From assembly GCA_041581335.1 (NCBI GenBank), contig JBFIDG010000002.1, positions 1 through 35,436 on the forward strand: a stretch of DNA of 35,436 nucleotides. Direction: 5' to 3'. Shown here one piece after another: positions 4,958 to 34,518 of the stretch. The position numbers and the translations under genes are program-made. This DNA comes from Thermoplasmatota archaeon. Lineage in GTDB: Archaea > Thermoplasmatota > E2 > JACPAO01 > JAHFTW01. The notes under the pieces are model-generated. The model saw nothing but the letters and a program-made list of their open reading frames with translations. It was not told the origin of the DNA and did no database searches. How positions within the stretch are numbered: the first letter of the stretch is position 1; every line of letters begins with the position of its first letter.

Positions 4958-4963
4958 TCAGGC

Positions 4964-5503: not shown

Positions 5504-5507
5504 GGAC

Positions 5508-5881: not shown

Positions 5882-5893
5882 GGGATGGGCCCC

Positions 5894-8263: not shown

Positions 8264-8288
8264 ATACCGCCAGTTGGAGAAGGAAGGC

Positions 8289-8303
8289 AAAAGGGTTGTG
8301 GAC
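8289..8303 (-). promoter_or_regulatory. promoter-like box GTCCACAACCCTTTT (sense strand), with TTTTG at -29..-25 of ATG 8263
   Basis: The same CCACAA-N3/4-TTWWG arrangement occurs at the same distance upstream of the genes starting at 9490 and 11433. The spacing fits an archaeal BRE/TATA for a leaderless mRNA. Confidence 0.45.
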
Positions 8304-8332
8304 TCGTCGGGCAAGCCCAAGGGCCTGCTAGA

Positions 8333-17670: not shown

Positions 17671-19965
17671 GTGGGCCTGACGGACCTCGGCATCGAAGCC
17701 CCCGTGGCCCGCGTATTGGAGGCCCAGGGCATCACCGCCCTGTACCCGCCCCAGGAGGCCGCATGGGCCGCCCTCAAGGACGGCAGCAACGTGGTCGTCA
17801 GCATCCCGACGGCCAGCGGCAAGAGCCTGATCGCATACCTCGCGATCCTGCACCGTTTCCTGGCCACCGGCAAGAAGAGCCTCTTCATCGTGCCCCTGCG
17901 CGCCCTGGCATCGGAGAAGTTCGAAGAACTGCAGGCGTTCAAGGGACTGGGACCCCGCGTCGCCATCGCCACGGGGGACCTGGACGAGAAGGACCCCAAG
18001 CTGGGCACGGCCGACATCATCGTCTGCACCAGTGAGAAGGCGGACAGCCTGCTGCGCCACCGCACCCCATGGGTGGACCAGATCGGCTGCATCGTGACCG
18101 ACGAGATGCACCTCATCCACGACCCCGGCCGCGGACCCACCCTCGAAGTGCTGCTGAGCCGCTTCCGCGCGCTGCTGCCGGAGGCGCAGATCGTCGGCCT
18201 GAGTGCCACCATCAAGAACGCCAACGAACTCGCCGAATGGCTCGACGCCAAACTCATCCTGAGCGAATGGCGCCCCGTAGACCTGCGCGTCGGCACTTAC
18301 CTCCCCAACAATCTCTCCTTCCTTGGGCAGGAGCCCCGCATGCTGGACGGCGCAGGCGACCCCGTGGCCGCCCTCGTCGATGACGCCTTGGCGGCCGGCG
18401 GGCAATGCCTGGTGTTCGTCAGCACCCGCCGGTCGGCGGAAGCCCAAGCGCAGAAGCTCGGTGGGGTCGTCCGCGAACGCCTCAGCTCCGAGCATCTTGC
18501 GCAGCTCGAGGCGGCCGTCTTGGAGATCGAGGGTGGCGAAGACCCGAGCCCCACCGCCAAGAAGCTCGCCAAGTTGTGCAAGGCCGGCGTCGCGTACCAC
18601 ACGGCCGGCCTGGACAACAAACAGCGGCGCTTCGTGGAGCAACAGTTCCGCGCCGGCCTGCTGAAGGTCCTCTGCGCGACGCCGACCCTGGCCGCTGGCG
18701 TCAACACCCCCGCCCGCCGCGTCATCATCCGGGACATGTCGCGATTCCAGATGGGTTCCGGCAACCAGCCCTTGCCCGTCATGGAGGTCAAGCAGATGAT
18801 GGGACGCGCCGGACGGCCCCGCTACGACCCTTACGGCGAAGCGGTGCTGCTTGCGAAGAACGAGGACATGAAGGAGATCCTCGAAGAGGAATACCTGCGC
18901 GGAGAACCGGAGCCGGTGACCAGCAAACTGGCCGCCGACGCCGCGCTGCGCATCCACACCCTGGCGAGCATCGCCGGAGACTATTGCCACAGCGCCGCGT
19001 CGCTGGAGAAGTTCCTTTCACACACCTTCTGGGCCCAGCAAGCGGAGTCGTGGATCATCCGTGACCGCCTGGAAGACACGCTGTGGTTCCTTGAAGAGAA
19101 CGGCTTCGTGGAGATGGACGGAGGCAATGTCAAGGCGACGTTGTTCGGGAAACGCACCAGCGACCTGTACATCGACCCCCTGTCGGCGCTGCGCATGCGC
19201 CAGGCCCTGGAATCCACGCTGGACGTCCCCGGCGACTTCGGCGCCCTGCACGTCATCGCCGGCTGCCCCGACCTGTACCCGCTGTACTTGCGGCAATCCG
19301 ATGGCTGGGTCCAAGAGACCTACTACGAACACTTCCCGCAACTCCTGATCCAAGAAGAGGACCTGGAGGACGCTTTCAGCCACGTCAAGACCGCGTGCCT
19401 GCTGCGGGACTGGATGGAAGAACGCCCCCAACAAGAGGTCGAAGAGCGCTTCAGCATCGGCCCTGGCGACATCCGCATGCGCATCGACTCCGCAGGCTGG
19501 ATGCTGCACGCGTTCCGCGAACTGGCCCGCGCCCTGCGCCCCGACTGGCAACGCCCCATCGGGGACCTGATCATCCGGCTCGAGAACGGCGTCAGGGCCG
19601 AACTCCTGCCCCTGATCCGCCTCAAAGGCGTCGGCCGAATCCGTGCCCGCACCTTGTTCACCGCCGGCTTCCACACGCCGGCCGCACTGAAGACCGCCCC
19701 CGTGGACCGCATCGCCAAGCTCCCTGGTTTCGGCGAAGTGCTGGCCCGTGAGCTCATCAAACAGGTCGGTGGAGACCCTGGGCCAGAGCCGGCCAAACCG
19801 GCCAAGCCGAAGCCGAAGGCTGCGCCCAAGGACGATGCCTCCGCCCCAGAACCTGCTGGGAGACCCAAGCAGGCCCCCAAGGCGGCCACCCCCGATCCGA
19901 CGCCGCCGGCGGACGAGACACCAAAGGGCCAACAAGGACTGGGGCAATGGGGGATGCAACCATGA
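17671..19965 (+). CDS. hel308: Hel308 / Ski2-like DNA helicase
   Basis: Helicase motifs are PTASGKS, DEMH, SAT, FVSTRR, HTAGL and QMMGRAGR. These are followed by the winged-helix, ratchet and HhH domains typical of archaeal Hel308. The last 65 aa or so form a P/A/K-rich tail. GTG start. Confidence 0.92.
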   Translation: MGLTDLGIEAPVARVLEAQGITALYPPQEAAWAALKDGSNVVVSIPTASGKSLIAYLAILHRFLATGKKSLFIVPLRALASEKFEELQAFKGLGPRVAIATGDLDEKDPKLGTADIIVCTSEKADSLLRHRTPWVDQIGCIVTDEMHLIHDPGRGPTLEVLLSRFRALLPEAQIVGLSATIKNANELAEWLDAKLILSEWRPVDLRVGTYLPNNLSFLGQEPRMLDGAGDPVAALVDDALAAGGQCLVFVSTRRSAEAQAQKLGGVVRERLSSEHLAQLEAAVLEIEGGEDPSPTAKKLAKLCKAGVAYHTAGLDNKQRRFVEQQFRAGLLKVLCATPTLAAGVNTPARRVIIRDMSRFQMGSGNQPLPVMEVKQMMGRAGRPRYDPYGEAVLLAKNEDMKEILEEEYLRGEPEPVTSKLAADAALRIHTLASIAGDYCHSAASLEKFLSHTFWAQQAESWIIRDRLEDTLWFLEENGFVEMDGGNVKATLFGKRTSDLYIDPLSALRMRQALESTLDVPGDFGALHVIAGCPDLYPLYLRQSDGWVQETYYEHFPQLLIQEEDLEDAFSHVKTACLLRDWMEERPQQEVEERFSIGPGDIRMRIDSAGWMLHAFRELARALRPDWQRPIGDLIIRLENGVRAELLPLIRLKGVGRIRARTLFTAGFHTPAALKTAPVDRIAKLPGFGEVLARELIKQVGGDPGPEPAKPAKPKPKAAPKDDASAPEPAGRPKQAPKAATPDPTPPADETPKGQQGLGQWGMQP

Positions 19966-21350: not shown

Positions 21351-21492
21351 GCCCCGACCCGGGGCCCCAGATCGCCGCCGCAGCTTACCAAAAACTGGGC
21401 GCGCGTCGTTGCGCTCATATAGGGGACCTGTGTCGGCGAGTTTGTCCCCGGCGTGCTGGGGACGCGCGCTGGCCTCGGCCGGCTCGCCATAG

Positions 21493-21566
21493 GGTCCCGT
21501 GGGGTAGCTTGGATATCCTGGAAGCTTGCGGAGCTTTTGACACGTGTTCGAATCGCGTCGGGACCG
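21493..21566 (+). tRNA. tRNA-Arg (anticodon GCG)
   Basis: GGTCCCGTGGGGTAGCTTGGATATCCTGGAAGCTTGCGGAGCTTTTGACACGTGTTCGAATCGCGTCGGGACCG. The acceptor is GGTCCCG/CGGGACC, the anticodon arm is GAAGC-TTGCGGA-GCTTT and the T arm is ACGTG-TTCGAAT-CGCGT. The D stem is weak at 3 bp. Confidence 0.85.
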
Positions 21567-21567
21567 C
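21545..21567 (+). repeat. attL-like core: the last 22 nt of tRNA-Arg plus 1 nt
   Basis: TGTTCGAATCGCGTCGGGACCGC is identical to 28383-28405. Confidence 0.9.
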
Positions 21568-21615
21568 TTCCTCTCTCTCCTGTTGGCTCGCCAATAGACC
21601 TCTTCCCAGCCAATC

Positions 21616-21870
21616 CTATGAAACAGCCCGCGAAAACGCCGGCATTTCATATTTGTCAAAACCCTCCCCCAAACGGCCCACCAGGCTACGGAGGTAATTG
21701 TACGTCGTCTCGAGCTTCCCTATCCACGAAGCATTAAGCGCTTCGTCAACCGACTCCGCATCTGGTTGCACGTGGCCGAACAGCGTGGCATGCTTAAGCC
21801 AGGCCAGCCAACCGCCAGCCAGTGGGGACGCTGGGCCGCCCTTAATGAGCGCTGGCCCGAGTTGGGTCAC
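21616..21870 (-). CDS. hypothetical protein (island, left end)
   Basis: 84-aa ORF with a GTG start and reasonable codon pattern. It overlaps the 5' part of track ORF 21766..22104, so only one of the two may be real. No integrase motifs. Confidence 0.3.
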   Translation of the reverse strand: MTQLGPALIKGGPASPLAGGWLAWLKHATLFGHVQPDAESVDEALNASWIGKLETTYNYLRSLVGRLGEGFDKYEMPAFSRAVS

Positions 21871-21879
21871 GCACTTCGC

Positions 21880-22104
21880 ATGAATCCGTCGCTAAGTTCC
21901 AGATTGGAACGCACATCCGGTGACCAAAAAGCATTCGAGGCAGAACTGCGCGCCATCGCCTCCGTCGTCGAGGGGACTGAGGACGCCCGCACGTTTTGGA
22001 TGGAAGAACCAATCATCAGCCCGATTCTGGAAAACATGGTACACTTTGCATCGCTGCCCCGAGCCGCACCCACCCCCGAAACGAAAGCCGCCAAGCCTGC
22101 GTGA
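21880..22104 (+). CDS. hypothetical protein (island)
   Basis: The internal ATG of track ORF 21766..22104 gives a 74-aa product, MNPSLSSRLERTSGDQKAFEAELRAIASVVEG... . This start avoids overlap with the minus-strand ORF. Confidence 0.3.
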   Translation: MNPSLSSRLERTSGDQKAFEAELRAIASVVEGTEDARTFWMEEPIISPILENMVHFASLPRAAPTPETKAAKPA

Positions 22105-23002
22105 GGCCCAGGGGCATACATCCACGAGCCCGCTTGGTCAATTCGAATTCGATTCAGGCGATGGGGTGCTGCGGGCGCCCGCACGAGCCGGCTCTAGCAG
22201 GCGGCAAGCGCCCCGACGCGATAGAACATTGCTAGGTTTAACAAAAAATTAACCACCCTATCGCACGTGTCTCCGGTAGAGCGGCGCGAGCCGACGGGCC
22301 AAAACTGGCCCCAAGGAACGCATCCCGAGCCTCCCCCGCAGCCTAGGCTGACCCCCAGACATACCCAAAACGGCGCCAGACTAGTCTACCGTCGATTAGG
22401 CGTCTCCTAGCCTTAAGATTTGGATTAAGCAGTATCCGTTGTGCCCATCCACACCACGATGCAACCGGCAGCGATGTCGTACCACGGTCCCGCAGCGGAC
22501 AAAACGCCCAACGCCACGCCCAACCCAGAACCGTCCACATCACCACCAACTAGCAGCGCACATTCAATAATTCGCACAGGCCACCGACGTCATTGGGGGT
22601 TGAGTCGAAGCAAGAGCCACGCCAGCAAACCCACCCCGGAGGCCTCCCATGCGTGAAGCAAGATTCGACATCTTCGCCGCAGGCCCACTACGAATGCCCG
22701 ACGGAACCATCCAAACCAACAAGCACCCGACCACACCCACCAAGCTCACAACACCCGGCGCGGAACCCCCTGCAACCAGCTAAGCCCCCTAGTGGTTCAT
22801 GACGGCTCCGACAAAAAGGCCACACGAGAATCGCGAAATTCGCCCCAATCTCGCTTCACCTACTGGCGCTAACGCCCCGGCGCTCGCGCCCAAGCCGATC
22901 CACAAGAGCCCCGCGCCCATTGGCCGCGACGAATCAATCTCACGAACTTAACGCACACACTTAACCCTCAGCCGCCGAATTCCAACCGCAAGGTCGGGTG
23001 TC

Positions 23003-23566
23003 GTGCGAGCCAGCGGAGACGAGACACGGGAGTTGCTGCTGCACATCATCCAGAACAAACCCGGCATCACCAAGAGCAGGCTCCAACAGGAAGCAAGCCT
23101 GGCATGGGGCACAATCAGCTACCACGTCCGAATCCTACAACGCGATGGCCGAATCGACGCATTTCGCCTCGGCAGAACCCTACGACTCGCACCGCGTCGC
23201 TTCAGCAAAGAACTCGAACAAGAAGCCGCCCTAATGGCCCCACTGGCACGCGACATCATCCAAGCCATATCCACCGCCGGCACCCGCGGCACAGCCGATC
23301 TTGCCCGCGCCACTGGCCAATCCGCCCGCCGAGTAGACAACCAACTCGGATACCTCATGGACGCTGGACTCATCGACCGCACCGACGCGTACCACCCACG
23401 CTACGAGCTAAACTCGAAGGGCATGGCAACCGCCCAGAAACTCGGCGCCAACCACCCACCACCCAACAGTGACCAATCGGCCACCCAACAAAATCCAGCC
23501 GTCAACGAACCAAACGGAGCGCACAATCATGAAAACAACCATCATTCTCCTAGCCACCATCCTTAG
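23003..23566 (+). CDS. double winged-helix-turn-helix DNA-binding protein with a His/Asn/Pro-rich tail (island)
   Basis: Two wHTH units: RELLLHIIQNKPGITKSRLQQEASLAWGTISYHVRILQRDGRIDAFRLGR and ARDIIQAISTAGTRGTADLARATGQSARRVDNQLGYLMDAGLIDR. GTG start. Confidence 0.7.
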   Translation: MRASGDETRELLLHIIQNKPGITKSRLQQEASLAWGTISYHVRILQRDGRIDAFRLGRTLRLAPRRFSKELEQEAALMAPLARDIIQAISTAGTRGTADLARATGQSARRVDNQLGYLMDAGLIDRTDAYHPRYELNSKGMATAQKLGANHPPPNSDQSATQQNPAVNEPNGAHNHENNHHSPSHHP

Positions 23567-23924
23567 CCTAACCGCCACCGCCACCCACGGCCAAGCCACT
23601 GGCGGCGCAGTGCTCCAGAGTGCAGTCGACGGCGACACCCTCGACCTTTCGTGGGCCGTGCTCGGCGCCATCGACGAACTGACTCTCCACTGGATCAATA
23701 GCACCGGCACAGAAGGCAGCCTCAGCGTAACGGCCACCGATGGAGGCATCTCCCTCGCAAACCCCGCCGACGCCACCCTCTACATCCTGGAAATCCAGGC
23801 AAACGGTGAAACATCTTTCAGCAACCCGGCAAGCAACTGGCCCCGCTGCGACCCAGAAGGCTGGCTAGCCATCGTCAACCAACCGCCCTTCGTACACGTC
23901 TACTACGACTGCATCCGACCATGA
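23529..23924 (+). CDS. small secreted protein (island)
   Basis: The internal ATG of track ORF 23469..23924 gives the signal peptide MKTTIILLATILSLTATATHG. The start lies inside the 3' tail of the wHTH gene. The stop overlaps the next start (ATGA at 23921-23924). Confidence 0.6.
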   Translation: MKTTIILLATILSLTATATHGQATGGAVLQSAVDGDTLDLSWAVLGAIDELTLHWINSTGTEGSLSVTATDGGISLANPADATLYILEIQANGETSFSNPASNWPRCDPEGWLAIVNQPPFVHVYYDCIRP

Positions 23925-25330
23925 CGCACGCCCGTTTCCACTGCACAACAGCCGCTATTATCATGCTACTAGTCGCACCCGCGGCGGGTGCCGTTAGCCT
24001 CACGGCGGAGTCAGTGGCCATCACAGGCGAAACACTCGACCTCCAAGCGAGCTACGTCCAAATTGACGCCGCCCAAGGACTCGAACCTCCCCGGGCGGAC
24101 GGTATCATCATCGACGGAACCGACATCAGCGTCGAAGCCTGGTACCAAGACTCCGGCGGCACCACCGTCCCAATTTTCCCCGAAACAACGGTCTCCACGC
24201 TTGCAGAAGGCCAAGTGACCGCCGTCGGTGCAGCAATTCAACCAACATTCCAACTCAACGTACTAGCCCCTGACGGGGCCACGATATCAGGTCTCTCAGA
24301 CCTGACCCTCCAGCCCCACTCGCAAAGCCAAGGCGGGTTCCCAGAGTACGTCTGGCAAACCGGAAACGAGTTCAACGTGACCCTCGCCAAGGACCCTCGC
24401 GCCGCCGTACACGCCGCCACGACCATCTCGTTCGACGCCCCATTCACCATGGCATTCTGGAGCTGGAACTTCACAGTCAATGGAGATGCAGAAGCGGCCT
24501 GGAGCGGACAGAGACCACACGGCGAACCCATTGCCGGAAGGCACCCCCAAGGGCTGGACAAACAGCTGCTCGTATTCCATGTCCGCGAAGGCACCGCCAC
24601 CATGCAACTCGATCCACAACACATCGAGCAGCTGTTCATTCGAACCCAGGAATTCCAACTCCAGGGCCAAGTCAACATCAAGCAATCAACGGTAACAGGA
24701 ACACCAGACGGGAGCACGAATCAGAGCTTCGAGGGCAACCTGACAATCAAAACGAGCCGAATCGACAACCACACGCTAAACGCTATCATCGCACAACAGG
24801 AAAGGCCCGGGCTATCCGGCACAGAGCCAATCGAGGCCCCAACAGACCCCATCCGAACCCCCGAAACCCACGACAACGGCAACGCCATGGCTGCACCAAT
24901 CAGCCCTGAATCAAGTACAGCCATACAGGCGCTGATGATTGCAGGACTCGCCATCCTGGCCCTAGGGTTGGTCGCATACGGAACGCGATGGAAACGCCTC
25001 GTAGCCCATTTCTCAGCCCAAGACTACCGCTACGTCGCCCGGCACGCAGCCACATTCCACGCAAGCTCACGCCACGCAGGAGACGCCCAAGTGATGACCA
25101 TGGTGGCAGCAATCAAGCTCGGTCACTACGAAATCGTACGAGACAACTTGGGCCGACTCCCCGACATCGACGCCGGCGCGCGAGCCATTCTCGAGGGGCA
25201 CGCACTCATCGGCCTCGGCCTGATCGACGACGCTCAAAAACTGCTCGACGAATTGCGCTCGACATATGGAACCCGTGAATCCTTGACCCACGCATTGGAG
25301 AGCTCCGACCCCTCTGCAGCGTACGCCTAA
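23921..25330 (+). CDS. type I membrane protein: signal peptide, ectodomain of about 310 aa, one TM span and a helical-repeat (TPR-like) cytoplasmic tail (island)
   Basis: The N-terminal hydrophobic segment is AAIIMLLVAPAAGAVS and the TM span is AIQALMIAGLAILALGLVAYG. The tail includes YRYVARHAATFHAS...AAIKLGHYEIVRDNLGRL...GHALIGLGLIDDAQKLLDEL. Confidence 0.65.
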   Translation: MTHARFHCTTAAIIMLLVAPAAGAVSLTAESVAITGETLDLQASYVQIDAAQGLEPPRADGIIIDGTDISVEAWYQDSGGTTVPIFPETTVSTLAEGQVTAVGAAIQPTFQLNVLAPDGATISGLSDLTLQPHSQSQGGFPEYVWQTGNEFNVTLAKDPRAAVHAATTISFDAPFTMAFWSWNFTVNGDAEAAWSGQRPHGEPIAGRHPQGLDKQLLVFHVREGTATMQLDPQHIEQLFIRTQEFQLQGQVNIKQSTVTGTPDGSTNQSFEGNLTIKTSRIDNHTLNAIIAQQERPGLSGTEPIEAPTDPIRTPETHDNGNAMAAPISPESSTAIQALMIAGLAILALGLVAYGTRWKRLVAHFSAQDYRYVARHAATFHASSRHAGDAQVMTMVAAIKLGHYEIVRDNLGRLPDIDAGARAILEGHALIGLGLIDDAQKLLDELRSTYGTRESLTHALESSDPSAAYA

Positions 25331-25798
25331 AACCCGCCGCGCCCCACCGCTACCCCCAGCCACGGTGCCCCGGCGCACCACCCCTCAGCATCAAACTTTT
25401 GCCGAGCACCGCTCGGCTTAGCAACCCACACCCAGCCCTGTATCCTACGTTATTAGTCGGCAACTAATACGAGTCAGGAACTTGTGTGATCCAGCTGCCC
25501 CCGCGTTGGAAATCGACCTCCACGACGCCATGGCTTTGCCCATGTCTAACGACACCCCACGCCAGCAATCCCATCACACCCCCACAAACCCGGGCATTTA
25601 CCCCGAAAATCCGGCATAGGATTACGGCATGCGCAGGCCGTGCACCAGCCAAATCCGGGGTCAGGGGGACGACCACCAACAAGGACGCGATGCCGCGACC
25701 AGCGACAAGGGGCCACCAATCGTACGAATCTGGCGACGAAGCTTAAGTCACGCCCGTGTTCCCTTCATCTGCCGACCTTCGTGTCGGAATGTGATAAT

Positions 25799-26116
25799 AT
25801 GAAACTGTACCTAATTACGGGAATCTTGCTGCTGTCCGCCCTCGCCGTCGTGCCAAGCGCATCGGCAGCCCAGTGCGCCAGCGCAACCTCCTGCGCGTAC
25901 GACGTCCGGGACCACTGCGGCGGCGGCGCTCTCCTCTCGCAGAGTTGCAGTAACGCCATCTCCAACCTGCCCGAAGGCGCGCAATACCAGGCCCACAACA
26001 CCGCTCAGAACCTGGCTTGCGTGGTCCAGGAGATCCTTAGCCCGGGAAGCGTCTGCCTTGTGCCAGAACCATGCAGGCCTGGCCAAGCGTGCGAAACCAT
26101 CCGCGTGGGACTGTAG
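25799..26116 (+). CDS. small cysteine-rich secreted protein (island)
   Basis: The internal ATG of track ORF 25640..26116 gives the signal peptide MKLYLITGILLLSALAVVPSASA. The mature part of about 80 aa has 8 Cys. Confidence 0.55.
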   Translation: MKLYLITGILLLSALAVVPSASAAQCASATSCAYDVRDHCGGGALLSQSCSNAISNLPEGAQYQAHNTAQNLACVVQEILSPGSVCLVPEPCRPGQACETIRVGL

Positions 26117-26183
26117 AAATACGGCAACCCCCTTCCTTTTCCCCTCCTCCCCACGCGCTTGCGCACCACCGCTCGGTGTATCC

Positions 26184-28205
26184 ATGAAAGTACCGAAATC
26201 GGCCATCCTCGCCGCCATTTTGATTGCCCCACTGGCCATGGGCCAAGCCCCGACGGACGCATGGCTACCACTCGACACAGATCCATCCGGCGACGTCACG
26301 ACGCCGGCGGGCAATCGCCCGGAATTCCAGGCTACCGACCTCAAGTCAATTCAATATCAAGAAACCCCGGCCGCACTTTGGCTCCAAATCACCACCGCCG
26401 GCTTCCCCCAAACGGCCGGCGTCGAAAGCACCCAAGCCAGCTACACCATCGGCTTCGCCGCAGGCAACCAATCATACCGCCTACTAACAACTCGCACGGT
26501 GCCAATACAAGGCGGCGCCCCCGCATACGACGTGACCTTTGAAGCCTACGATGCCGCGCTCGGAGACTACCGTCGCAAGAGCGCGCCAATCGAATTTCAG
26601 GCAGATGAAACGGGCATCCTGTATTACGGCCTGCCCTGGCAAAACATCACCACGGAGCGCGGCCTCCCCCTGGTGCCGGGCAACCAACTCACGGACATCT
26701 CCATCCGAACAGCCAGCGGATACGACGCAATTATCGCAAGCAGCGCCGGGGCCGCCGGCCCCACCCCCACCGCAATCGCCCAGGACCGCATGCCCGACCA
26801 AGGGGAACTCGCCATCACTCTCCAAAGCATCGGCCGCGCCGCGGAAGGCATCATTGCCACCAGCCCCAACCCACTGCGATCAAGCAACGGCGCCCCCACG
26901 ACTTTCCTATTCCCCCTAGTCCTTTCCAACTTCCAGGGCTCGCAAGCCGTACTGGAACTTCTTGCAACGGATTTACCAAATGGTTGGGAGGCCCACCCCC
27001 TAGCCAACCCCATCATCCTCGAAGACCGGCAAAGCGTCGTCACTAGCATTGCCGTCAGCACCACAGGTCACCACCAACATGGCACCCAGCAAGCATTTGA
27101 AGTGCAAGTGCTGCAAGCGGGCGCGCTGCAAGCCAGCATTGAATACACGGTATACTACACTGAGACGGCGCAACCAAGCGGCCACCATCCGACGCTCTAC
27201 CTATACACCGTCGAACGAAGCCGCGGCAACCCCGTGAGCGACGCCGGCGATACCGTCTCCGAGGAGGTTCAAGGGTTCTACTACAATGACGCGTTCATGA
27301 CAACCGCCATTGATGCGGCCGAGGATGCCCAGGTCCCGGTCACCGCCGGGGCCGTGGGCACTCGACACGGCTGGCAGATTCCTTTGACACCATCATTAGG
27401 CCTAGGCCTCGACTTCACTGACGATGCAAGCGAGCTTGTCCTGCCGCTAGAATTGACTAGGGATGGCTCAATCTCACAAGTCCAGCTCGAGGCCGTCGTT
27501 AGCGTTCAGCGAGCAGACGGCCAGTTGAAGCTGGCCTCAGGAAGTCTAGACGTGGGTACCTTCGCCTCGAGCCAGGAGGTCACGATTCCAATTGCCAGGC
27601 TCCCCGGTGTCGACGTAGTAGCATACCAGCCTGGCCAGAACATGGTGCTTACGGTGTTCGCTGATTTCGTCGATCAACCCAACACCGGCCTAGATCTCAA
27701 CCTCATGCCCGGCGGCCGCATCACGTTGCCGCTCGAAGAGTACCAGGACGTCATCCCGGAAGGTTCGTTGAGTTCGTTGTCGTTGAGCGTGGAGCCGCGG
27801 TTCCAACTCGTCAATCCAGGCAGCCGCGTTAACTATCACATGACGGTGAGCGGCCCTGCCGGAGCTGTCGTGGAACTCGATGGACTAGGAGTCCCCGAGG
27901 GCTGGAGGCTGTCGTTCTCGAAGAATCGCCCGACGCTTACCGAAGGCCCCGTACTCGTTACAGTTCAGCTAGAGGCTCCGATAGGCGCCCGCGATGGCGA
28001 CGGGGCATCGTTCTTTGTGCGGGCGTCCCCCAGTGATGGCTCGGCGGCGACTGCCGCCGGCATTCGGGCGGAGGTTGATTCGAGGGCAGAATTGCCTCAG
28101 ATCGATGCGCTGACTGCGCGGGAGAAACAGAGTAGCAGCGTCGCCGCCGTCGCACTTCTATTGATGCTAGCCACCACCACGTGGACCAGACGGGGCAGAC
28201 AATAG
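26184..28205 (+). CDS. large surface protein: signal peptide, beta-sandwich-like repeats and a C-terminal TM anchor (island)
   Basis: The internal ATG of track ORF 26058..28205 gives the signal peptide MKVPKSAILAAILIAPLAMG. The C-terminal anchor is SSSVAAVALLLMLATTTWTRRGRQ. Segments such as LVNPGSRVNYHMTVSGPAGAVVELDGLGVPEGWRLSFS...LTEGPVLVTVQLEAP resemble CARDB/NEW3-type archaeal surface-protein modules; this is inference. Confidence 0.7.
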   Translation: MKVPKSAILAAILIAPLAMGQAPTDAWLPLDTDPSGDVTTPAGNRPEFQATDLKSIQYQETPAALWLQITTAGFPQTAGVESTQASYTIGFAAGNQSYRLLTTRTVPIQGGAPAYDVTFEAYDAALGDYRRKSAPIEFQADETGILYYGLPWQNITTERGLPLVPGNQLTDISIRTASGYDAIIASSAGAAGPTPTAIAQDRMPDQGELAITLQSIGRAAEGIIATSPNPLRSSNGAPTTFLFPLVLSNFQGSQAVLELLATDLPNGWEAHPLANPIILEDRQSVVTSIAVSTTGHHQHGTQQAFEVQVLQAGALQASIEYTVYYTETAQPSGHHPTLYLYTVERSRGNPVSDAGDTVSEEVQGFYYNDAFMTTAIDAAEDAQVPVTAGAVGTRHGWQIPLTPSLGLGLDFTDDASELVLPLELTRDGSISQVQLEAVVSVQRADGQLKLASGSLDVGTFASSQEVTIPIARLPGVDVVAYQPGQNMVLTVFADFVDQPNTGLDLNLMPGGRITLPLEEYQDVIPEGSLSSLSLSVEPRFQLVNPGSRVNYHMTVSGPAGAVVELDGLGVPEGWRLSFSKNRPTLTEGPVLVTVQLEAPIGARDGDGASFFVRASPSDGSAATAAGIRAEVDSRAELPQIDALTAREKQSSSVAAVALLLMLATTTWTRRGRQ

Positions 28206-28382
28206 GGTCCGACCAGCGGCGTCTGCCACACCCCCCGGGCTAATACGGATACGGAGTGGTGCAAGCACAACAAACCCGCCGCGCCGGACACATTAGTTGG
28301 AAAAACGCCCCCACCCGCCTCTCCTGTTGTCATGAGGTTGCGATTTTGGCCCACCCTAATGCCCGATCCCCTCCTGTTGGCC

Positions 28383-28405
28383 TGTTCGAATCGCGTCGGG
28401 ACCGC
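28383..28405 (+). repeat. attR-like core: displaced original 3' end of tRNA-Arg
   Basis: Identical to 21545-21567 and followed after 3 nt by a T7 run. Confidence 0.9.
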
Positions 28406-28408
28406 CTC

Positions 28409-28415
28409 TTTTTTT
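28409..28415 (+). terminator. oligo-T (T7) tract, the likely original tRNA-Arg terminator
   Basis: TTTTTTT lies directly after the distal tRNA 3'-end copy. Archaeal RNA polymerase terminates at oligo-T. The intact tRNA at 21493..21566 has no such tract. Confidence 0.5.
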
Positions 28416-28526
28416 GTCTCCCTCAGCGGAGGCTCCATCTCGACCCCTTTGTTTCCACTCGAGCGCAAGTACTCCTTGGCGGAATCCGGGGAAGCCGTTA
28501 ACCGAGCGCCCGCCTGTCGGCCTCCT

Positions 28527-28667
28527 ATGAGCGACCGAAGGCTGATCGACAGCTACTGCAACTCTTGTGAAGACGTCGCCAAGCACGTCATCCGTCCGGA
28601 TGACCCGGGCTCCTGCGTCTGCACGGTGTGCCACGCGAGCCAGCAATTGATGGTCCCGATCGGTTAG
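28527..28667 (+). CDS. small zinc-ribbon protein (46 aa)
   Basis: MSDRRLIDSYCNSCEDVAKHVIRPDDPGSCVCTVCHASQQLMVPIG has CxxC...CxCxxC and host-like GC3-rich codons. It is an internal start of track ORF 28332..28667. Confidence 0.4.
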   Translation: MSDRRLIDSYCNSCEDVAKHVIRPDDPGSCVCTVCHASQQLMVPIG

Positions 28668-28786
28668 GACCAGAAATCGAGGTCAAGGTCGCCCTTGGCC
28701 TCTTTCTTGCCCTTCTTCTCCTGGCGCTTGGCCGTCAGGTCCTCGACCTCGTCGAGCAGGCTCTTGCGCTTCTTCTCCTCGGGCAT
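28664..28786 (-). CDS. small highly charged protein (40 aa)
   Basis: Below the track cutoff. MPEEKKRKSLLDEVEDLTAKRQEKKGKKEAKGDLDLDFWS has strongly host-like codon usage. Its stop overlaps the stop of the convergent zinc-ribbon ORF. Confidence 0.3.
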   Translation of the reverse strand: MPEEKKRKSLLDEVEDLTAKRQEKKGKKEAKGDLDLDFWS

Positions 28787-29316
28787 AGGGGCTTGCAGGC
28801 TGTCCGCTCTGATTAGCCCTGCCGTCGCCGGCCCGGGGGCCTAGTCGCCTTGCAGTTTGCGTTTGGCCAGTGCGGCCAAACGGCGCCCGGCGGGACTCTG
28901 GCGCAGATTGGCTCCCGGGGGACTGTCTGGCATCTTCTGCCGCTTCGCGGCCATCTGGATGCGTTTCTTGCTCGCATCCTGGTTGCGGCGGACCGTCTCG
29001 CTCACGGCGCCTCCGGCGGTACGGTCGTCGGGTCCATGGGCGGACCACGCGGGCCTCCCAGAAAGGGCCATCGGCGCCGTGGCGACGGTGTGGGCCGGCG
29101 GGAGGCGACCCCAGACGATGCCTGCGCCAAGCCGGCCGCCGGCATGGCGGCCGGGCTCCGGCCTCGGCGCCCAGCCACGCGCACGGTCGGCGTGGCGGCG
29201 GTCGCGAGGGGCCGACACACCGATGTCCAGACCCATAGCGCAAGGCGCCGACGGCCTGCCCGCGGGGCCCGCCCCGACGCGAAACGGCTAATGCCAGCAC
29301 ACCACACCTCCAAGCT

Positions 29317-29949
29317 ATGCCCGCGGTGGTCTTCGACTTCGACGGCGTCATCTGCAACAGCATGGCCCAGCACGCGGCCGCGTACCGGGACCTGCTGAAG
29401 CCATTCGGCATCCCGGTCACTGATCGCCAGATCTACCTGCTCGAGGGCGCCCGCAGCGAGTCCATCATCCAGGACCTCGCCGTGGCCGCGGGCGTCGCTT
29501 TGCAGGACGTGGCCGGGCTGGCGAACGAGAAGCAACGCTTGTTCCGGGAAGCAGGCGCGCCGTCGCTGTACCCGGGCGCCGCATCCCTTGTCGGTTCGGT
29601 GCAGGACCGGACGGCCACGGCGGTCGTCACGGGCACCCGGCTGGAGAACCTGGCGCGCTTGATCCCGGACCTGATGGAGCGCTTCGAGGCCATCATGAGC
29701 CAGGAGACCTACCAGATGGACAAGCCACATCCGGAGCCCTATGCCCGCGCCGCGCAGGCGTTGCGCGTAGACCCTGAGGACTGCATCGCCGTGGAGAACG
29801 CCGTGCGCGGCGTGCAGAGCGCCAAGGCGGCTGGCTACGGCGAAGTGATCGCCATCACCACGACGCTGGCCAGCAACGACCTTGGGGCAGCCGACCTCGT
29901 CGTCCCAGACCACCCGACCTTGCACGCTGCCCTGATGGACAGGCTCTAA
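29317..29949 (+). CDS. HAD-superfamily hydrolase (beta-phosphoglucomutase / phosphatase-like)
   Basis: Motif I is VVFDFDGVI. A cap region follows, then VVTGT (motif II), K (DKPHPEPY) and a motif III-like VENAVRGVQSAKAAG. Confidence 0.85.
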   Translation: MPAVVFDFDGVICNSMAQHAAAYRDLLKPFGIPVTDRQIYLLEGARSESIIQDLAVAAGVALQDVAGLANEKQRLFREAGAPSLYPGAASLVGSVQDRTATAVVTGTRLENLARLIPDLMERFEAIMSQETYQMDKPHPEPYARAAQALRVDPEDCIAVENAVRGVQSAKAAGYGEVIAITTTLASNDLGAADLVVPDHPTLHAALMDRL

Positions 29950-29972
29950 GTCCGGCACACCCATCTGGGGAT

Positions 29973-30452
29973 GTGGCACGGAAGCCGGTCATCGGCGTCA
30001 TGGGCGGACACGCAGTGTCGGGCGACACAGAGATCCTAGCGGAAGAACTAGGGGCCGCCATCGCCAAAGAAGGCTGGATCCTACTCAATGGCGGCCGCGA
30101 CGAAGGCGTCATGCGCGCCTCCGCCAAAGGCGCCCACGAGGCCGGAGGATTCGTCGTGGGCCTCCACCCAGGGATGCGGGATGATGGCGACGTCGCGCCA
30201 CACCTGGATCTGTGCATCTTCACCGGCATCGGGTTCGCCCGCAACATGAGCAACATCCTGACGAGCGACGTCGTCGTGGCGTTGCCTGGCCGCTACGGCA
30301 CACTCAACGAGGTCGCCTACTCGAAGACCTTCGGCAAACCCACCATCCTGTTCGGCTTCCTCGACGAGATGTGGTTCGGCGACGGCGTGACCCGCGTCAA
30401 CACGGTGGATGAATGCATCCAGGCCATCCGGCGGCTCCTGAGGTCAAGCTGA
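29973..30452 (+). CDS. TIGR00725 / LOG-like Rossmann-fold protein
   Basis: IGVMGG........A.ELG..IA..G..LLNGG..GVM.A...GA...GG..VG and ALPG.YGT..E are the family blocks. GTG start. Confidence 0.75.
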   Translation: MARKPVIGVMGGHAVSGDTEILAEELGAAIAKEGWILLNGGRDEGVMRASAKGAHEAGGFVVGLHPGMRDDGDVAPHLDLCIFTGIGFARNMSNILTSDVVVALPGRYGTLNEVAYSKTFGKPTILFGFLDEMWFGDGVTRVNTVDECIQAIRRLLRSS

Positions 30453-30486
30453 GTCGAGCAGACCGCCGGTAACGCGCACCGGATGG

Positions 30487-31581
30487 GTGGCGCCCGCTTT
30501 TCAACCCGGCCGGTTTCGCCGCGCCGTGGCCCTCCGCACGCCGCTATACGCGACCCACGAAGCCGCCGGCGCGACGTTCGTCCCCTTTGCCGGATATGAC
30601 ATGCCGGTGCACTACGGCAGCATCAAGGACGAACACGCCGCCGTCCGCCAGGGCGCCGGCCTCTTTGACGTCAGCCACATGTCGAACCTGTGGGTCGAAG
30701 GCCCCGGCGCTGCGGCCGCCATCGGCGCCGTCACCACGCGCCCCGCGGCCGCCCTGCCACTTGGCAAGGGCCACTACACGTGCATCATGAACGAGGATGG
30801 CACCATCCTCGACGACACCTTCGTCTTCCGCCTGGAAGAGGAACGCTTCCTGGTCATCCCCAACGCTGGCATGAACCGCATCGCGCAGGAGCACATCGCG
30901 GCGCACGCCCAAGACGAGACCGTCGTCTCCGACGAGACCAGCGACTGGGCGATCCTTGCGCTACAAGGCCCCAAGGCACGGGGCATCCTGGCCAGAGCCA
31001 GCACCGATGAGGCCCCCAAGTTCCATCGCATCGCGGTCATGGAGATCGCCCGCGCCGGCTGCCTGGTGAGCGGCACCGGATACACGGGCGAGAAGGGCGT
31101 CGAGATCTACGTTCCAGCCGTCCAGGCGGTCCAGGTCTGGGAGCACCTCATGCACATCGGCGCCGAAGACGGCCTGCGGCCCATCGGCCTGGGCGCCAGG
31201 GATACGCTCCGCCTCGAGAAAGGCTACTGCCTCGCCGGCAACGAGTTCGCCGGAGGCCGCAGCCCCCTCGAAGCCAACCTCGCGTTCTGCATCGACTGGG
31301 ACCATGAGTTCCTGGGCAGGGCCGCCCTGGCCGAACAGAAAGAGACCGACCACGCCCTGTTGTGGGGCCTCGTGCAGGAGAAAGGCATCCCGCGCCATGG
31401 CTACCGCGTGCTCCAAGGCGACGACGACATCGGCGAGATCACCAGCGGCACCCAGAGCCCGACCCTCGGACAAGGCATCGCACTTGCCTACCTGAACGGC
31501 GTGGATGCAGGCGACTTGGTCGACGTGGACATCCGCGGCAGGCGCCAGCCCGCCAAGGTCGTCTCGCCGCCCTTCTGCTGA
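30487..31581 (+). CDS. gcvT: glycine cleavage system T protein (aminomethyltransferase)
   Basis: LRTPLYATHEAAGATFVPFAGYDMPVHY, GLFDVSHM, SGTGYTGEKGVEIY, GLGARDTLRLE and GEITSGTQSPTLG are blocks seen in GcvT proteins. GTG 30526 is an alternative start. Confidence 0.9.
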   Translation: MAPAFQPGRFRRAVALRTPLYATHEAAGATFVPFAGYDMPVHYGSIKDEHAAVRQGAGLFDVSHMSNLWVEGPGAAAAIGAVTTRPAAALPLGKGHYTCIMNEDGTILDDTFVFRLEEERFLVIPNAGMNRIAQEHIAAHAQDETVVSDETSDWAILALQGPKARGILARASTDEAPKFHRIAVMEIARAGCLVSGTGYTGEKGVEIYVPAVQAVQVWEHLMHIGAEDGLRPIGLGARDTLRLEKGYCLAGNEFAGGRSPLEANLAFCIDWDHEFLGRAALAEQKETDHALLWGLVQEKGIPRHGYRVLQGDDDIGEITSGTQSPTLGQGIALAYLNGVDAGDLVDVDIRGRRQPAKVVSPPFC

Positions 31582-31659
31582 AGGCAGCCGCTGCCACATA
31601 TCAGCGCTGCGGGCTTCCGAACGTCTTATACAACCAGAGCCCGAGTCGAGGCCTCAACC

Positions 31660-33006
31660 ATGTACATCATCGTCGGTGGTGCAGGTGAAGTCGGCTTCCA
31701 CGTCGCGCGCGCCCTGCGGGACGAAGGCCATGATGTGGCCGTGGTCGAGGCCGACGCACGGCGGCTTGAGCGCTTGCAGGAACTGGATGTCCTCGCGGTG
31801 CACGGCAACATCGCCAACAAGCGCATCCTCGAAGAGGAGGCCAATGTCCGCGAAGCGGACCTCTTGATCGCTTGCACCGGCGACGACGCGGTGAACATGA
31901 TCGCCGCCGCATTGGCCAAGACGTACGGCGTGCGGACCATCGCACGCATCAACGACAACGAATACCTCAACGTGCCGTACTCCGACGAATACCAGGCCAT
32001 GGGGATCGACATGGCCGTCAGCCCGGAGATGGTCGCGGCGATCCGCATCCGGCGCCTGCTCAAACAGCCCGAGCTCCTCAACGCGGACGTGTTCGCCCAG
32101 GGCAAGGTCCACATCGCCGAAGGCCGGGTCACGAGCGAGGCGTTCGTCGCAGGCAAACAGGTCCAAGAGGTAGAGCCCCCGGCCGGCTTCAACCTCTTCG
32201 CCATCTACCGCGGCGACGATGTCATCATCCCCCGTGGCACGACCCGATTCCAGGTCCACGACCGCCTCCTCATGGCGTTGCTGAGCCCCGAGGTCCTGAA
32301 GGACGTCGAGCCATACATCGGCCGCTTGAAGACCGTCGCTCAGAACAAACCCGTACGCCGTGTCATGATCGCCGGCGCCACGCGCATCGGCGTGCACTTG
32401 GCACGCCTGCTGGAACAGACGAAGCATGACGTCGTGCTGGTCGATCCCGATGCCGAGCGCTGCCGCAGAGCCGGCGAGCGCCTCACCAAGACCCTCATCG
32501 TGCACGGCGACGTGACGGACCGCACCTTGCTCATCCAAGAGAACGTCGACACCTTCGATGCGTTCGTCGCGGCCACACGCGTCGAGGAATACAATGTGCT
32601 GGCGGCGCTGATGGCCAAGCAGCTCGGCGTGCCTATGACGGTCGCCGTCATCAACCAGCCAGAGCTGAAGCAGTTCCTGGAGACCCTCGACATCGACCTC
32701 GCCGTGGCGCCCCGCCTCAGCACCGTCGGCGCCATCCTGAAGCATGTCCACCCGCAGAACGAAGAACTGCAATTGCAGAACCTCGGCGAAGAACGCATCA
32801 TGATCATCCGGGTCCCCGAGAACGCCGGCATCGTCGGCAAGACGATCCAACGGGCCGGCCTGCCACCCCATTCCATCATCGCGGCCATCGTCCGCGGCGA
32901 GGATGTCATCCTGCCTCGCGGCAGGGACACGATCCAAGGCCACGACCTCATCGTCGCCTACGCGCTCACCGAGTCGGTGGAGCGTCTGGAGCGTCTCTTC
33001 CGATGA
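31660..33006 (+). CDS. trkA: Trk potassium uptake system NAD-binding subunit TrkA
   Basis: Two RCK units: MYIIVGGAGEVG (GxGxxG) and RVMIAGATRIG. Each is followed by a TrkA-C domain. Confidence 0.92.
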   Translation: MYIIVGGAGEVGFHVARALRDEGHDVAVVEADARRLERLQELDVLAVHGNIANKRILEEEANVREADLLIACTGDDAVNMIAAALAKTYGVRTIARINDNEYLNVPYSDEYQAMGIDMAVSPEMVAAIRIRRLLKQPELLNADVFAQGKVHIAEGRVTSEAFVAGKQVQEVEPPAGFNLFAIYRGDDVIIPRGTTRFQVHDRLLMALLSPEVLKDVEPYIGRLKTVAQNKPVRRVMIAGATRIGVHLARLLEQTKHDVVLVDPDAERCRRAGERLTKTLIVHGDVTDRTLLIQENVDTFDAFVAATRVEEYNVLAALMAKQLGVPMTVAVINQPELKQFLETLDIDLAVAPRLSTVGAILKHVHPQNEELQLQNLGEERIMIIRVPENAGIVGKTIQRAGLPPHSIIAAIVRGEDVILPRGRDTIQGHDLIVAYALTESVERLERLFR

Positions 33007-34508
33007 AGAACGGCACGGCCGTCGTGACGACCATCGCGGGCGTCATGCGGGCCGCCGGACCGTTCTTCCTTGTCCCGTTCGTCGTCGCCTGGCTGTATGA
33101 CCCCTGGGACATCTCGATCGCGGGGATCCCTGCCCCCAGCACGGCTTTGCTGTTCCTGGCGGCCGGGACCATGACGTCCGCCGTCGGCCACGGCGCGTGG
33201 CTGATCACCCATCCGCGGCGTTACTTCGAGCTCACGGAGAAACAGGGCTACATGGCCGTCGCAGGAGGATGGCTCATGATGTCCTTCGTGGCGGCGCTCC
33301 CCATGCTTGGTGTGCTGCCCAATCCCATCGATGCCTGGTTCGAGGCCATGAGCGGCGTGACGGCGACAGGCGCCACGACGCTGCGTGACATCGAGAGCGT
33401 CGCGCCGAGCATCCTGTTCTGGCGGAGTATGCTGCAATGGCTCGCCGGTTTCGCCATCGTCGTCGTCGGCATCGCATTCTTGACGCGGCTGACCCACGCC
33501 GGAGCCCAGCTGCTCGCGGCCGACGTCACGGCCACCGGCAAACGGTTGCGCCCGCGCATCCCGGAGACCGCCCGTGCCATGGCCCCCCTCTACGGCGGCT
33601 TCACGGTCTTGACCTACGTCGCCTACCTGATCACGATCCGCTTCACCGGGATCAAGCCCGGATGGAAGGCCAGCTTCATGGACGCGGTCGTGCACACGTT
33701 CAGCACCGTCAGCACCGGTGGCTTCAGCAACCACACAAAGAGCCTAGCATACTTCCAGAGCGCCTGGGTCGAGGCCGTCGCCGTGGCGGCCATGCTCGTG
33801 GCCGGAACGAGCTTCGCCCTGATGTACTACGTGCGCAAGGACCCTCGCCACATCTTTGAAGACCGTGAGTGGCGGGCCATGGTCTTCTTCCTGACCGCTG
33901 CATCCATCGGCGCCGTGGGCTTGTTGACGCTCGACGGAGACCCGTTCGCCGAGAGCGTGCGGGCCGGCATCGTCACGGTCGTCAGCATCGCCACGAGCAC
34001 CGGTTTCGCCATCGTCGACCACGACCAATGGCCGACGCTGGCCCGCTCGCTTCTGCTGGTCACCATGTTCGTCGGCGCCATGGCCGGCTCGACCTCCGGC
34101 GGCATGAAGGTGCTGCGCATCGTGCTCCTGCTGAAGGTGGCCCGCCGCGAACTTCGCAAACTCCTGCATCCCAGGGCCATCATGTCCGTCCGCCACGGGG
34201 GCAGAGGCCTGCCGGAGAACACATTGTTGACCATCATCGCGTTCTTCTTCACGTTCATCACGACGTGGATGGTGGGCGCCATCGCATTGATCTCCATGGA
34301 ACCCGCGCTGGGGATCTTCGACGGCGCAGCCGCATCGGCGGCGGCCATCGGCAACACCGGCCCCGCCATGGGCATCGTCGGGCCGTTCGATACGTACGAC
34401 GACCTGCACACGCCGAGCCGCGCCGTGCTGGCCATCTTGATGTGGTTCGGCCGCCTCGAGGTCTTCGCCGTCCTCTTGTTCTTGAGCCCCTCCAGCTGGC
34501 GCAACTAG
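33003..34508 (+). CDS. trkH: Trk potassium uptake system membrane subunit TrkH
   Basis: A polytopic protein with the repeated selectivity-filter-like motifs SGVTATGATT, FSTVSTGGFS, IATSTGFA and MAGSTSGGMK. The start overlaps the trkA stop. Confidence 0.92.
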   Translation: MKNGTAVVTTIAGVMRAAGPFFLVPFVVAWLYDPWDISIAGIPAPSTALLFLAAGTMTSAVGHGAWLITHPRRYFELTEKQGYMAVAGGWLMMSFVAALPMLGVLPNPIDAWFEAMSGVTATGATTLRDIESVAPSILFWRSMLQWLAGFAIVVVGIAFLTRLTHAGAQLLAADVTATGKRLRPRIPETARAMAPLYGGFTVLTYVAYLITIRFTGIKPGWKASFMDAVVHTFSTVSTGGFSNHTKSLAYFQSAWVEAVAVAAMLVAGTSFALMYYVRKDPRHIFEDREWRAMVFFLTAASIGAVGLLTLDGDPFAESVRAGIVTVVSIATSTGFAIVDHDQWPTLARSLLLVTMFVGAMAGSTSGGMKVLRIVLLLKVARRELRKLLHPRAIMSVRHGGRGLPENTLLTIIAFFFTFITTWMVGAIALISMEPALGIFDGAAASAAAIGNTGPAMGIVGPFDTYDDLHTPSRAVLAILMWFGRLEVFAVLLFLSPSSWRN

Positions 34509-34518
34509 GGCAACGGCC

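Follow-up and report, generated by a model that had tools for sequence, protein, structure and literature searches.

A tRNA-Arg genomic island of a Thermoplasmatota archaeon with a putative extracytoplasmic sensing module and surface-protein cargo

Gene content of the island

The stretch of DNA analyzed here, which we call the window, comprises positions 1 to 35,436 (35,436 nt) of contig JBFIDG010000002.1 of a Thermoplasmatota archaeon (assembly GCA_041581335.1). Its archaeal host is identified by a Hel308-type helicase with the archaeal domain 4, which is encoded at 17671-19965, and the loci in other genomes that are related to this region are all from metagenome-assembled genomes of Thermoplasmatota. 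We examined a 6.8 kb genomic island within this window and, in particular, the five open reading frames (ORFs) P1 to P5 that it carries. A reading made from the sequence only had described these ORFs as a co-oriented block coding for a winged helix-turn-helix (wHTH) regulator and four exported or membrane proteins. Every statement of that reading made at the level of the sequence was upheld. All five ORFs have the same orientation, the P1 and P2 genes overlap by 38 nt, and the stop codon of P2 overlaps the start codon of P3 in an ATGA at 23921-23924. The gap that follows P3, given as about 470 bp, measures 468 nt. Hydropathy analysis of P3 shows a signal peptide and one transmembrane segment, as is appropriate for a type I membrane protein. 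P4 is a miniprotein with a signal peptide and eight Cys residues (positions 26, 32, 40, 50, 74, 86, 92 and 98), and P5, likewise with a signal peptide, is modeled as all-beta and ends in a hydrophobic stretch plus TRRGRQ. The preference of the block for A/C-rich codons is evident in the composition of third codon positions: GC3 and A3 are 0.65-0.76 and 0.15-0.26 in P1-P5, compared to 0.82-0.90 and 0.05-0.14 in eight flanking genes. The features of the island are listed in Table 1, together with the loci in other genomes that encode relatives of P3.

Table 1. Features of the island in the window and gene order at loci with P3 homologues (">" denotes the next gene)
Feature	Position	Strand	Evidence or remark
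tRNA-Arg (anticodon GCG), integration target	21493-21567	+	ARAGORN; Rfam RF00005 in a local search
attL: TGTTCGAATCGCGTCGGGACCGC (23 nt exact), then T/C, then TC	21545-21570	+	repeat search, 25/26 identical
Left 1.4 kb of the island, no convincing gene	21571-22939		ORF lists; sole candidate is an orphan ORF, 21766-22104 (+)
11-mer CTCCTGTTGGC just within the left island end	21577-21587	+	further copy 28371-28381, near copy 28319-28329
Candidate promoter/operator upstream of P1, conserved with L004	22940-22977	+	DNA alignment; tblastx matches in several frames
P1, soluble double winged-helix regulator, 187 aa, GTG start	23003-23566	+	Pfam
P2, secreted 131-aa protein, signal peptide, 2 Cys (C107, C128)	23529-23924	+	alignments A2, A10
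P3, type I membrane protein, 469 aa	23921-25330	+	hydropathy, alignment A5, AF2
Spacer between the two units, 468 nt	25331-25798	+	sequence reading
P4, secreted 105-aa protein, signal peptide, 8 Cys	25799-26116	+	
P5, 673-aa surface protein, signal peptide, C-terminal anchor and RRGRQ	26184-28205	+	homologues, alignment A7, AF2
attR: copy of the tRNA 3' end, then the original oligo-T tract (28409-28415)	28383-28408	+	
L004: wHTH (53% to P1) > 131 aa (53% to P2) > P3 homologue			
L018: wHTH > 129 aa > P3 homologue			
L021: 87 aa > P3 homologue > wHTH			4-nt overlap
L022/L023: divergent wHTH, then 71 aa > P3 homologue			
L024: P3 homologue > wHTH			4-nt overlap
L019/L020: P2-like > P3 homologue			short contigs

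The description of the block as one operon-like array was not confirmed. P1, P2 and P3 are translationally coupled and are conserved together elsewhere, but P4 and P5 lie behind the 468-nt spacer and are never found with the other three genes in other contigs. The best reading is that the cargo of the island consists of two independent units, P1-P2-P3 and P4-P5. In the spacer, CTTTT and a perfect 7-bp hairpin, GCCGAGC-acc-GCTCGGC (25396-25417), are followed by TATTAGT-cggca-ACTAATA, a palindrome rich in AT (25451-25469), and strains differ by a 7-nt insertion/deletion (indel) at 25695-25701. These features are consistent with separate transcription units, the hairpin and palindrome being putative terminator and promoter elements. 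P4 is an orphan, as no relatives were found in the Pfam, PHROG, NCBIfam and PADLOC searches, at the compared loci or in IMG/VR.

Boundaries, composition and strain comparison of the island

The cargo lies on a genomic island that has no integrase and is integrated at the 3' end of the tRNA-Arg gene. The insert is bounded by an exact repeat, with positions 21545-21567 identical to 28383-28405, i.e. the last 23 nt of the tRNA-Arg gene are the att core. The tRNA gene was missed by the fast filters of the Rfam gathering run over the whole window and scored 49.6 bits when 300 nt were searched. Rfam otherwise gave no match at the gathering score over the whole window and none at E ≤ 1 in 21400-21700 (beyond the tRNA) and 28206-28700. 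The copies of the 11-mer CTCCTGTTGGC are possible arm-type recombinase sites, which in a circular form of the element would stand on either side of the att core. The junctions expected for such an element are an attB consisting of the tRNA followed by CTCTTTTTTTG and an attP consisting of CCTGTTGGCC, the core and TTCCTCTCTC.

The GC content of the island is 0.59-0.62, compared to 0.66-0.70 in the flanks, and its skew extremes are -0.28 for GC and +0.40 for AT. The strongest A/C strand bias of the entire window (AT skew up to 0.40, GC skew -0.28) is found in the gene-poor left part of the island (21571-22939), and about 31% of the island is without a gene. Six-frame pieces of 21560-23010 had no Pfam match and hence contain no detectable integrase remnant. 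An integrase, a replication protein or an ATPase was not found among the island ORFs with Pfam either, and no SSV-type ORF split across the att sites was seen in the ORF lists. The island resembles tRNA islands of tyrosine-recombinase elements in that repeats of the tRNA 3' end bound foreign DNA, with an intact tRNA at one end and an oligo-T tract past the distal repeat. It differs from them in being very small, in having no integrase gene or remnant of one, and in carrying cargo only.

A second assembly (GCA_041619475.1, contig JBFKDU010000029.1) contains the same island and is 99.76% identical to the window over 14 kb. The two sequences differ by only 2 single-nucleotide polymorphisms (SNPs) in the 6815 nt of the island (21568-28382), but by 24 in the 7045 nt of the right flank (28383-35427). 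This 12-fold contrast (Fisher p = 1.1e-5) points to a younger or separate history of the island. One of the two island SNPs is non-synonymous and lies in P3, the other is synonymous and lies in P5, and the only indel, of 7 nt, is in the spacer. In the second assembly, the first position of the contig falls exactly 141 nt short of the final att-core base (window 21427-21568), and sister metagenome-assembled genomes (MAGs) of the same series bear k141 contig names. The start of the contig therefore fits a fork at att in a de Bruijn graph with k=141, and hints at a co-occurring variant with other DNA after the tRNA. We treat it as a hint only because the contig passes unbroken through attR. A Logan contig, L017, also ends within the tRNA, at position 21541.

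Searches for the empty site were made in two ways. Exact-protein look-ups of flanking genes returned only the same two strains, and a GcvT-based scan of JGI metagenomes gave no syntenic relatives. The attP junction pattern was not found in IMG/VR.

P1, P2 and P3 in other genomes

The co-occurrence of the five genes was surveyed in other genomes and gave a divided answer: P1, P2 and P3 recur together in Thermoplasmatota contigs (Table 1), whereas P4 and P5 do not accompany them, and IMG/VR contains no relatives. In all six informative contexts, the window included, a double-wHTH gene is found beside the P3 homologue, and this pairing occurs in three arrangements (upstream, divergent, and downstream overlapping). 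A small secreted P2-like protein with a Cys loop is encoded directly upstream of the P3 homologue in six of seven contexts, usually at a distance of 0-5 nt or overlapping with it. As judged by gene order and alignments, P1-P2-P3 is a conserved three-gene module restricted to the Thermoplasmatota lineage.

Some of these modules have housekeeping neighborhoods. The module of L021 is located beside TiaS, and that of L024 is near genes for Nre, an acyl-CoA dehydrogenase and P5CR. At L004 and L024 the GC content is native, and the surroundings of their modules gave no att repeats. The module ends about 110 nt from a tRNA-Lys gene (9228-9302) in L004 and about 20 nt from a tRNA-Thr gene (10202-10274) in L024, with no att repeat or GC dip at either place.

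P1 is composed of two winged helices. The first (residues 6-73) matches the Pfam families HTH_24 (2.5e-10) and HTH_HVO_0163_N (1.5e-8), and the second (residues 70-129) matches HVO_A0114 (7.8e-7), MarR_2 and ArsR. They are followed by a C-terminal tail rich in His, Asn and Pro. P1 orthologues adjoin P3 relatives in L004, L018, L021, L022/L023 and L024 (alignment A9), and their C-terminal tails are not conserved. The 38-nt candidate promoter/operator upstream of P1 contains two CTTAAC boxes, at 22947-22952 and 22960-22965, the second of which is 38 nt before the GTG start codon.

The same regulator family was seen in two further settings. In L018 (5386-7568), the P2-P3 pair is adjoined by a run of three paralogous double-wHTH genes, with a subtilase and a giant Big_13 protein encoded close by, which suggests a local expansion of the family in envelope-related neighborhoods. 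L004 encodes a 364-aa secreted protein (4553-5647) with about seven repeats of L-C-A-x2-Y-V-x3-Y-x-A-x-S-I...F-V-x-C-T, and immediately downstream of it is a second double-wHTH gene (5731-6327), a paralogue of the first. This may be another pairing of a wHTH regulator with an exported protein.

P2 has no Pfam, PHROG or NCBIfam match. Conservation in the P2 family is found in the C-terminal Cys loop, C-x-P-x2-W-x5-PP[FY]V-x5-C-x2-P.

P3 consists of a signal peptide, a beta-rich ectodomain of about 300 aa, a Pro/Thr/Glu-rich linker, a transmembrane segment at residues ~331-356 and a tail of about 110 aa. The family is very rare. A single close homologue (P0004, 41% identity) was found among 5.8e9 clusters. 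An exhaustive HMMER search gave 10 matches in 1.84e9 representatives, nine of which are near- or full-length relatives or a fragment and the tenth an unrelated repeat protein, and no relatives were found in the GTDB representative genomes or in JGI metagenomes. The relatives are 450-554 aa long and share the plan of a signal peptide, an ectodomain, a transmembrane segment and a helical tail. The ectodomain contains a conserved sequon, W-x-W-N-[FLI]-T (alignment A5, 10 members). The extreme cytoplasmic C-terminus carries [AG]-Y-[SAT] in nine of the ten aligned members, with P3 of the window ending in A-Y-A (25322-25330), and both the tail and this terminal motif are kept down to 18-23% identity across the family. 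The penultimate Tyr resembles that of the HbYX motif, with which activators dock on the 20S proteasome.

Structure prediction followed by a Foldseek search, which had been proposed for all five proteins, was run for P3 and P5. The AF2 models were computed on alignments of two (P3) and three (P5) rows and are poor; a further word-index search with the P5 alignment brought up no proteins beyond the same three. The pLDDT of the P3 model is 43 overall, with values of 70-80 in the helical tail. In comparison to the PDB, this tail superposes on 3-TPR domains with TMt of 0.61-0.67, a root mean square deviation (rmsd) of 3.2-4.5 Å and E-values of 0.15-1. The best superposition is with YbgF (2xev; TMt 0.67, rmsd 3.3 Å), and RPAP3 and the TPR1 domain of HOP were also matched. 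Herpesvirus gB and the SARS-CoV-2 spike appeared in the same fold search with probabilities of 0.01-0.02 and are noise. P3 itself has no Pfam TPR match, three of the ten family members have weak ones (the best at 0.0018), and matches of the family profile to the TPRs of SGT1 and AIPL1 in the PDB are weak (E 0.9-1.8). We therefore call the tail TPR-like by its predicted structure, the support from sequence being weak.

P5 and the surface-protein family to which it is related

Homologues of P5 are 24-28% identical to it. The two found in the databases, P0002 and P0003 (24-27%), align over 87-88% of the length of P5, and most other loci of the family also align over most of its length, roughly 450-650 residues. 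P0002 and P0003 stand alone on the chromosome, beside L44e/S27e/eIF2-alpha genes or after SMC/ScpA/ScpB. In the GTDB representative genomes, the family has 12 loci, all of them in Thermoplasmatota and on contigs of up to 346 kb (relatives on 70-346 kb), and tandem paralogues are present in four of the 12. No relatives of P1-P4 were found near these loci, except for a divergent wHTH gene (31% identity to P1) beside the P5 relative in L013.

An alignment of 18 family members contains 30 invariant positions, all of which are present in P5. Among them are His, Asp and Glu residues in PF-H297-x-H299-G, Q330-P-x-G-H334-H335 and L-P-L-x-E519-Y-x-D522. This cluster suggests a metal-binding or catalytic site in an otherwise structural-looking surface protein. 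The family has Ig-like Pfam domains, namely FixG_C in 16 of 18 members, NPCBM_assoc/NEW3 in 14 of 18 and Ig_VWA7 in 10 of 18. In the relatives, the anchor is composed of [ST]-P-[GA]-x-G, a hydrophobic stretch and RRR. No match of the PGF-CTERM model was reported for the family, and P5, whose C-terminal hydrophobic segment and Arg cluster are not preceded by a Pro-Gly-type motif, does not classify as an archaeosortase substrate. Assignment of P5 to the NCBIfam family NF041740 (choice-of-anchor T) was considered and rejected. P5 is unmatched, and its relatives score about 15 bits over a partial Ig-like stretch, compared to a cutoff of 70.

The AF2 model of P5 (pLDDT 52) is a string of beta sandwiches, and with this low-confidence model Foldseek searches of the PDB and BFVD gave only generic multi-Ig proteins, at TM-scores of 0.08-0.16. 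In profile searches against solved structures, including the fusexin 7P4L, neither the P5 nor the P3 family showed sequence similarity to any of them.

P5 is similar to the Thermoplasmatota family of Ig-like (FixG_C/NEW3) surface proteins in the 30 invariant residues, the signal peptide, the C-terminal hydrophobic segment and the Arg-rich end. Unlike its relatives, it is diverged, has no proline motif before the anchor, and is located on an island rather than in chromosomal, often tandem, arrays. P5 is thus best read, from these alignments, as a diverged extra copy of a Thermoplasmatota cell-surface family that was probably carried in by the island. A common origin of P2, P3 and P5 is not supported, as hhalign shows no relationship between them.

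A possible viral or fusogen origin of the block, and the evidence against it

The sequence-only reading had likened the block to the membrane and spike genes of pleolipovirus-like archaeal viruses and to the fusogen cargo of integrated elements. Neither comparison was borne out: the ORFs have no matches in viral collections, the core partner genes are missing from the island, and no fusexin match was found. If the island were a degraded provirus or another virus-derived element, P3 and/or P5 would be a former spike or fusion protein, P2 and P4 would be small membrane proteins of the virion, and P1 would be the regulator of lysogeny. Such an origin would agree with the small size, tRNA integration and foreign composition of the island, with a gene order in which a regulator is followed only by exported or anchored proteins, and with a one-sided strand skew as in some rolling-circle elements. 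The one third of the island without a recognizable gene would be compatible with decay. However, P2-P5 have no PHROG match and P1 has only a generic HTH one, while P1, P3 and P5 are unmatched by tblastn in INPHARED (50,697 phage and archaeal-virus genomes), and IMG/VR contains no relatives of P1, P2, P3, P4 or P5. None of the five ORFs has a P-loop, the only Walker A strings being those in antisense shadow frames. The search of BFVD with the P5 model gave only generic multi-Ig proteins (TM-score 0.08-0.15), and relatives of both the P5 family and the P1-P3 module are found in native chromosomal contexts. A viral origin of the block is hence very improbable.

Two known systems were compared with the island. 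The core genes of pleolipoviruses include VP3, ORF6/7 and an ATPase (PMC10599561), none of which is present on the island. Like proviruses of the Pleolipoviridae, the island is small and integrated at a tRNA gene, and it encodes a large anchored protein with a signal peptide, close to an HTH regulator and to small proteins that are secreted or membrane-bound. Unlike them, it has no VP3-like, ORF6/7-like, ATPase, Rep or integrase gene, and its putative "spike" is unmatched. The fusexin Fsx1 has three C-terminal transmembrane segments and a HAP2-like fold, and is encoded on elements rich in DNA-mobilization genes (PMC9259645; PDB 7P4L). The similarity to Fsx1 is that in both cases an integrated archaeal element of deviant composition encodes a protein of roughly 50-70 kDa that is exported and anchored in the membrane. 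However, P5 has one C-terminal anchor, P3 has one transmembrane segment followed by a soluble tail, and the island has no mobilization genes. No Pfam HAP2-GCS1 match was found, and the P5 and P3 family profiles retrieved nothing from all PDB sequences, 7P4L included. This exclusion of a viral block or fusogen is one of sequence and gene content. An exclusion of a spike or fusogen at the level of the fold is not possible because the P5 and P3 models are poor (pLDDT 52 and 43).

A possible sensing function of the module

The alternative put forward by the sequence-only reading was that the block is a sensing or surface cassette gained by horizontal transfer, in which the wHTH protein and the single-pass TPR protein act as a signaling pair. 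This interpretation is favored by the comparative data, except that the conserved unit comprises three genes and not five. The most probable explanation of the cargo, in our opinion, is that an extracytoplasmic sensing module (P1-P2-P3) and surface cargo (P4-P5) are carried together on the integrase-less tRNA-Arg island. P3 would be a single-pass receptor with a beta-rich, glycosylatable ectodomain. P2, which is co-translated with it, would work with this ectodomain outside the cell as a ligand or co-receptor. The cytoplasmic tail of P3, with its three TPR-like repeats, would bind or control the cognate soluble regulator P1, which in turn would act on the conserved element just upstream of its own gene. 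What favors the sensing-cassette reading is that the pairing of the wHTH gene with P3 survives gene-order rearrangement in six of six contexts and that the tail superposes on 3-TPR domains. The physical interactions between P3 and P1 and between P2 and P3, the direction of signaling and the effect on the cell surface are inferred from gene linkage and protein architecture.

Bacteria have co-transcribed pairs in which a regulator is matched with a single-pass membrane sensor, among them ECF sigma/anti-sigma factors such as RsgI-SigI and the wHTH repressor and sensor pair BlaI-BlaR1. In these systems, as here, the regulator gene is located beside, and is often translationally coupled with, the gene of a membrane protein that has extracytoplasmic and cytoplasmic protein-binding domains, and here the pairing is conserved while the gene order varies. 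The differences are that the archaeal host has no sigma factors and the regulator is a soluble double winged helix, that the tail is a 3-TPR-like domain with a terminal Tyr motif and not a ZAS domain or protease, and that the secreted Cys-loop protein P2 adds a further conserved partner to the pair.

The main rival of the signaling model holds that P2 and P3 (and also P4 and P5) are structural surface or adhesion proteins and that P1 is a local on/off transcription factor, with no signaling via the P3 tail. Such wHTH genes are numerous and often have paralogues nearby (three in L018 and two in L004), one adjoins a P5 relative in L013, the conserved N-glycosylation sequon in the P3 ectodomain is typical of surface proteins, and no conservation is seen in the C-terminal tails of P1 orthologues. 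On the other hand, the TPR-like tail of about 110 aa and the [AG]-Y-[SAT] terminus are conserved across the P3 family to 18-23% identity, which argues for a cytoplasmic partner, and the linkage of the wHTH gene survives three gene orders, including 4-nt overlaps with P3 homologues. We consider this rival rather unlikely.

Several observations nevertheless weigh against the sensing and surface-cargo explanation. The linkage of a regulator to a membrane protein is no proof of a physical signaling pair, and P1 could be a local transcription factor. The TPR assignment of the P3 tail depends on a stretch of about 110 residues with Foldseek E-values of 0.15-1. P5 itself has no Pfam or NCBIfam match and lacks the [ST]-P-[GA] motif before its anchor, having ...EKQSSSVAAVALLLMLATTTWTRRGRQ instead. 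The continuity of the second-assembly contig through attR is not predicted by a simple mixture of island-free and island-bearing strains. Finally, as no integrase, empty site or circular junction was found, the mobility of the island is a historical inference.

Part of this evidence would also agree with the five ORFs being the decaying or non-functional cargo of a dead island, pseudogenized or unexpressed: there are no mobility genes, 31% of the island is non-coding, P5 is without its proline motif and P4 is an orphan. However, the five ORFs are intact in two independent assemblies, which differ in them by one non-synonymous and one synonymous change and have an indel only in the spacer. Furthermore, P5 keeps all 30 family-invariant residues, and P1-P3 keep their conserved motifs, their start/stop overlaps and the upstream element. 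We thus give hardly any weight to a dead island. Chromosomal relatives outside islands and pseudogenization had both been named beforehand as findings that would refute the sequence-only interpretation; the former were found for P5 and for P1-P3, but of the latter there was no sign.

A more far-reaching form of the sensing model is that P1-P2-P3 constitutes an undescribed three-component transmembrane signaling system restricted to Thermoplasmatota and movable on tRNA-targeting islands. P2 would be the ligand, perhaps a self-made signal, with its C-terminal Cys loop of about 25 residues being essential. The TPR tail of P3 would hold or release P1, and the HbYX-like Tyr might pass P1 to the proteasome. 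We put this forward tentatively, as a possibility that is somewhat doubtful.

Other observations

A defense function was searched for with PADLOC, which matched only the generic HTH of P1, to Csa3/CasR HTH domains. In a plasmid search, P5 was unmatched and P1 had one weak Natrinema match. No tandem repeats of note were found. Two more exported proteins, a multicopper oxidase of 596 aa and a PKD-domain protein of 385 aa, are encoded in the native chromosome upstream of the island, at 6530-9490 on the minus strand.

Implications

What is known of signaling across the cell envelope of archaea comes mostly from two-component systems, together with a few regulators bound to the membrane. Genomic islands at tRNA genes that carry surface cargo are ordinary, and systems in which a regulator is paired with a membrane sensor are of a kind already known. 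What is new here is a module that contains two families without a curated model and is composed of a double wHTH regulator, a putative TPR-tailed receptor and its Cys-loop partner, that is found only in Thermoplasmatota, and that in this case is located on a presumably mobile island. As these families are very rare and have no Pfam or NCBIfam model, the definition of the module is of value for the annotation of Thermoplasmatota genomes. The example also indicates that a gene block on a tRNA island may be "envelope-only" without being viral, and that here the block is probably ordinary cargo of cellular origin, for the surface and for sensing, that was transferred horizontally. If the proposed function is true, then a secreted protein, a single-pass receptor and a wHTH regulator would form a new signaling route, compact and testable, in an uncultured phylum.

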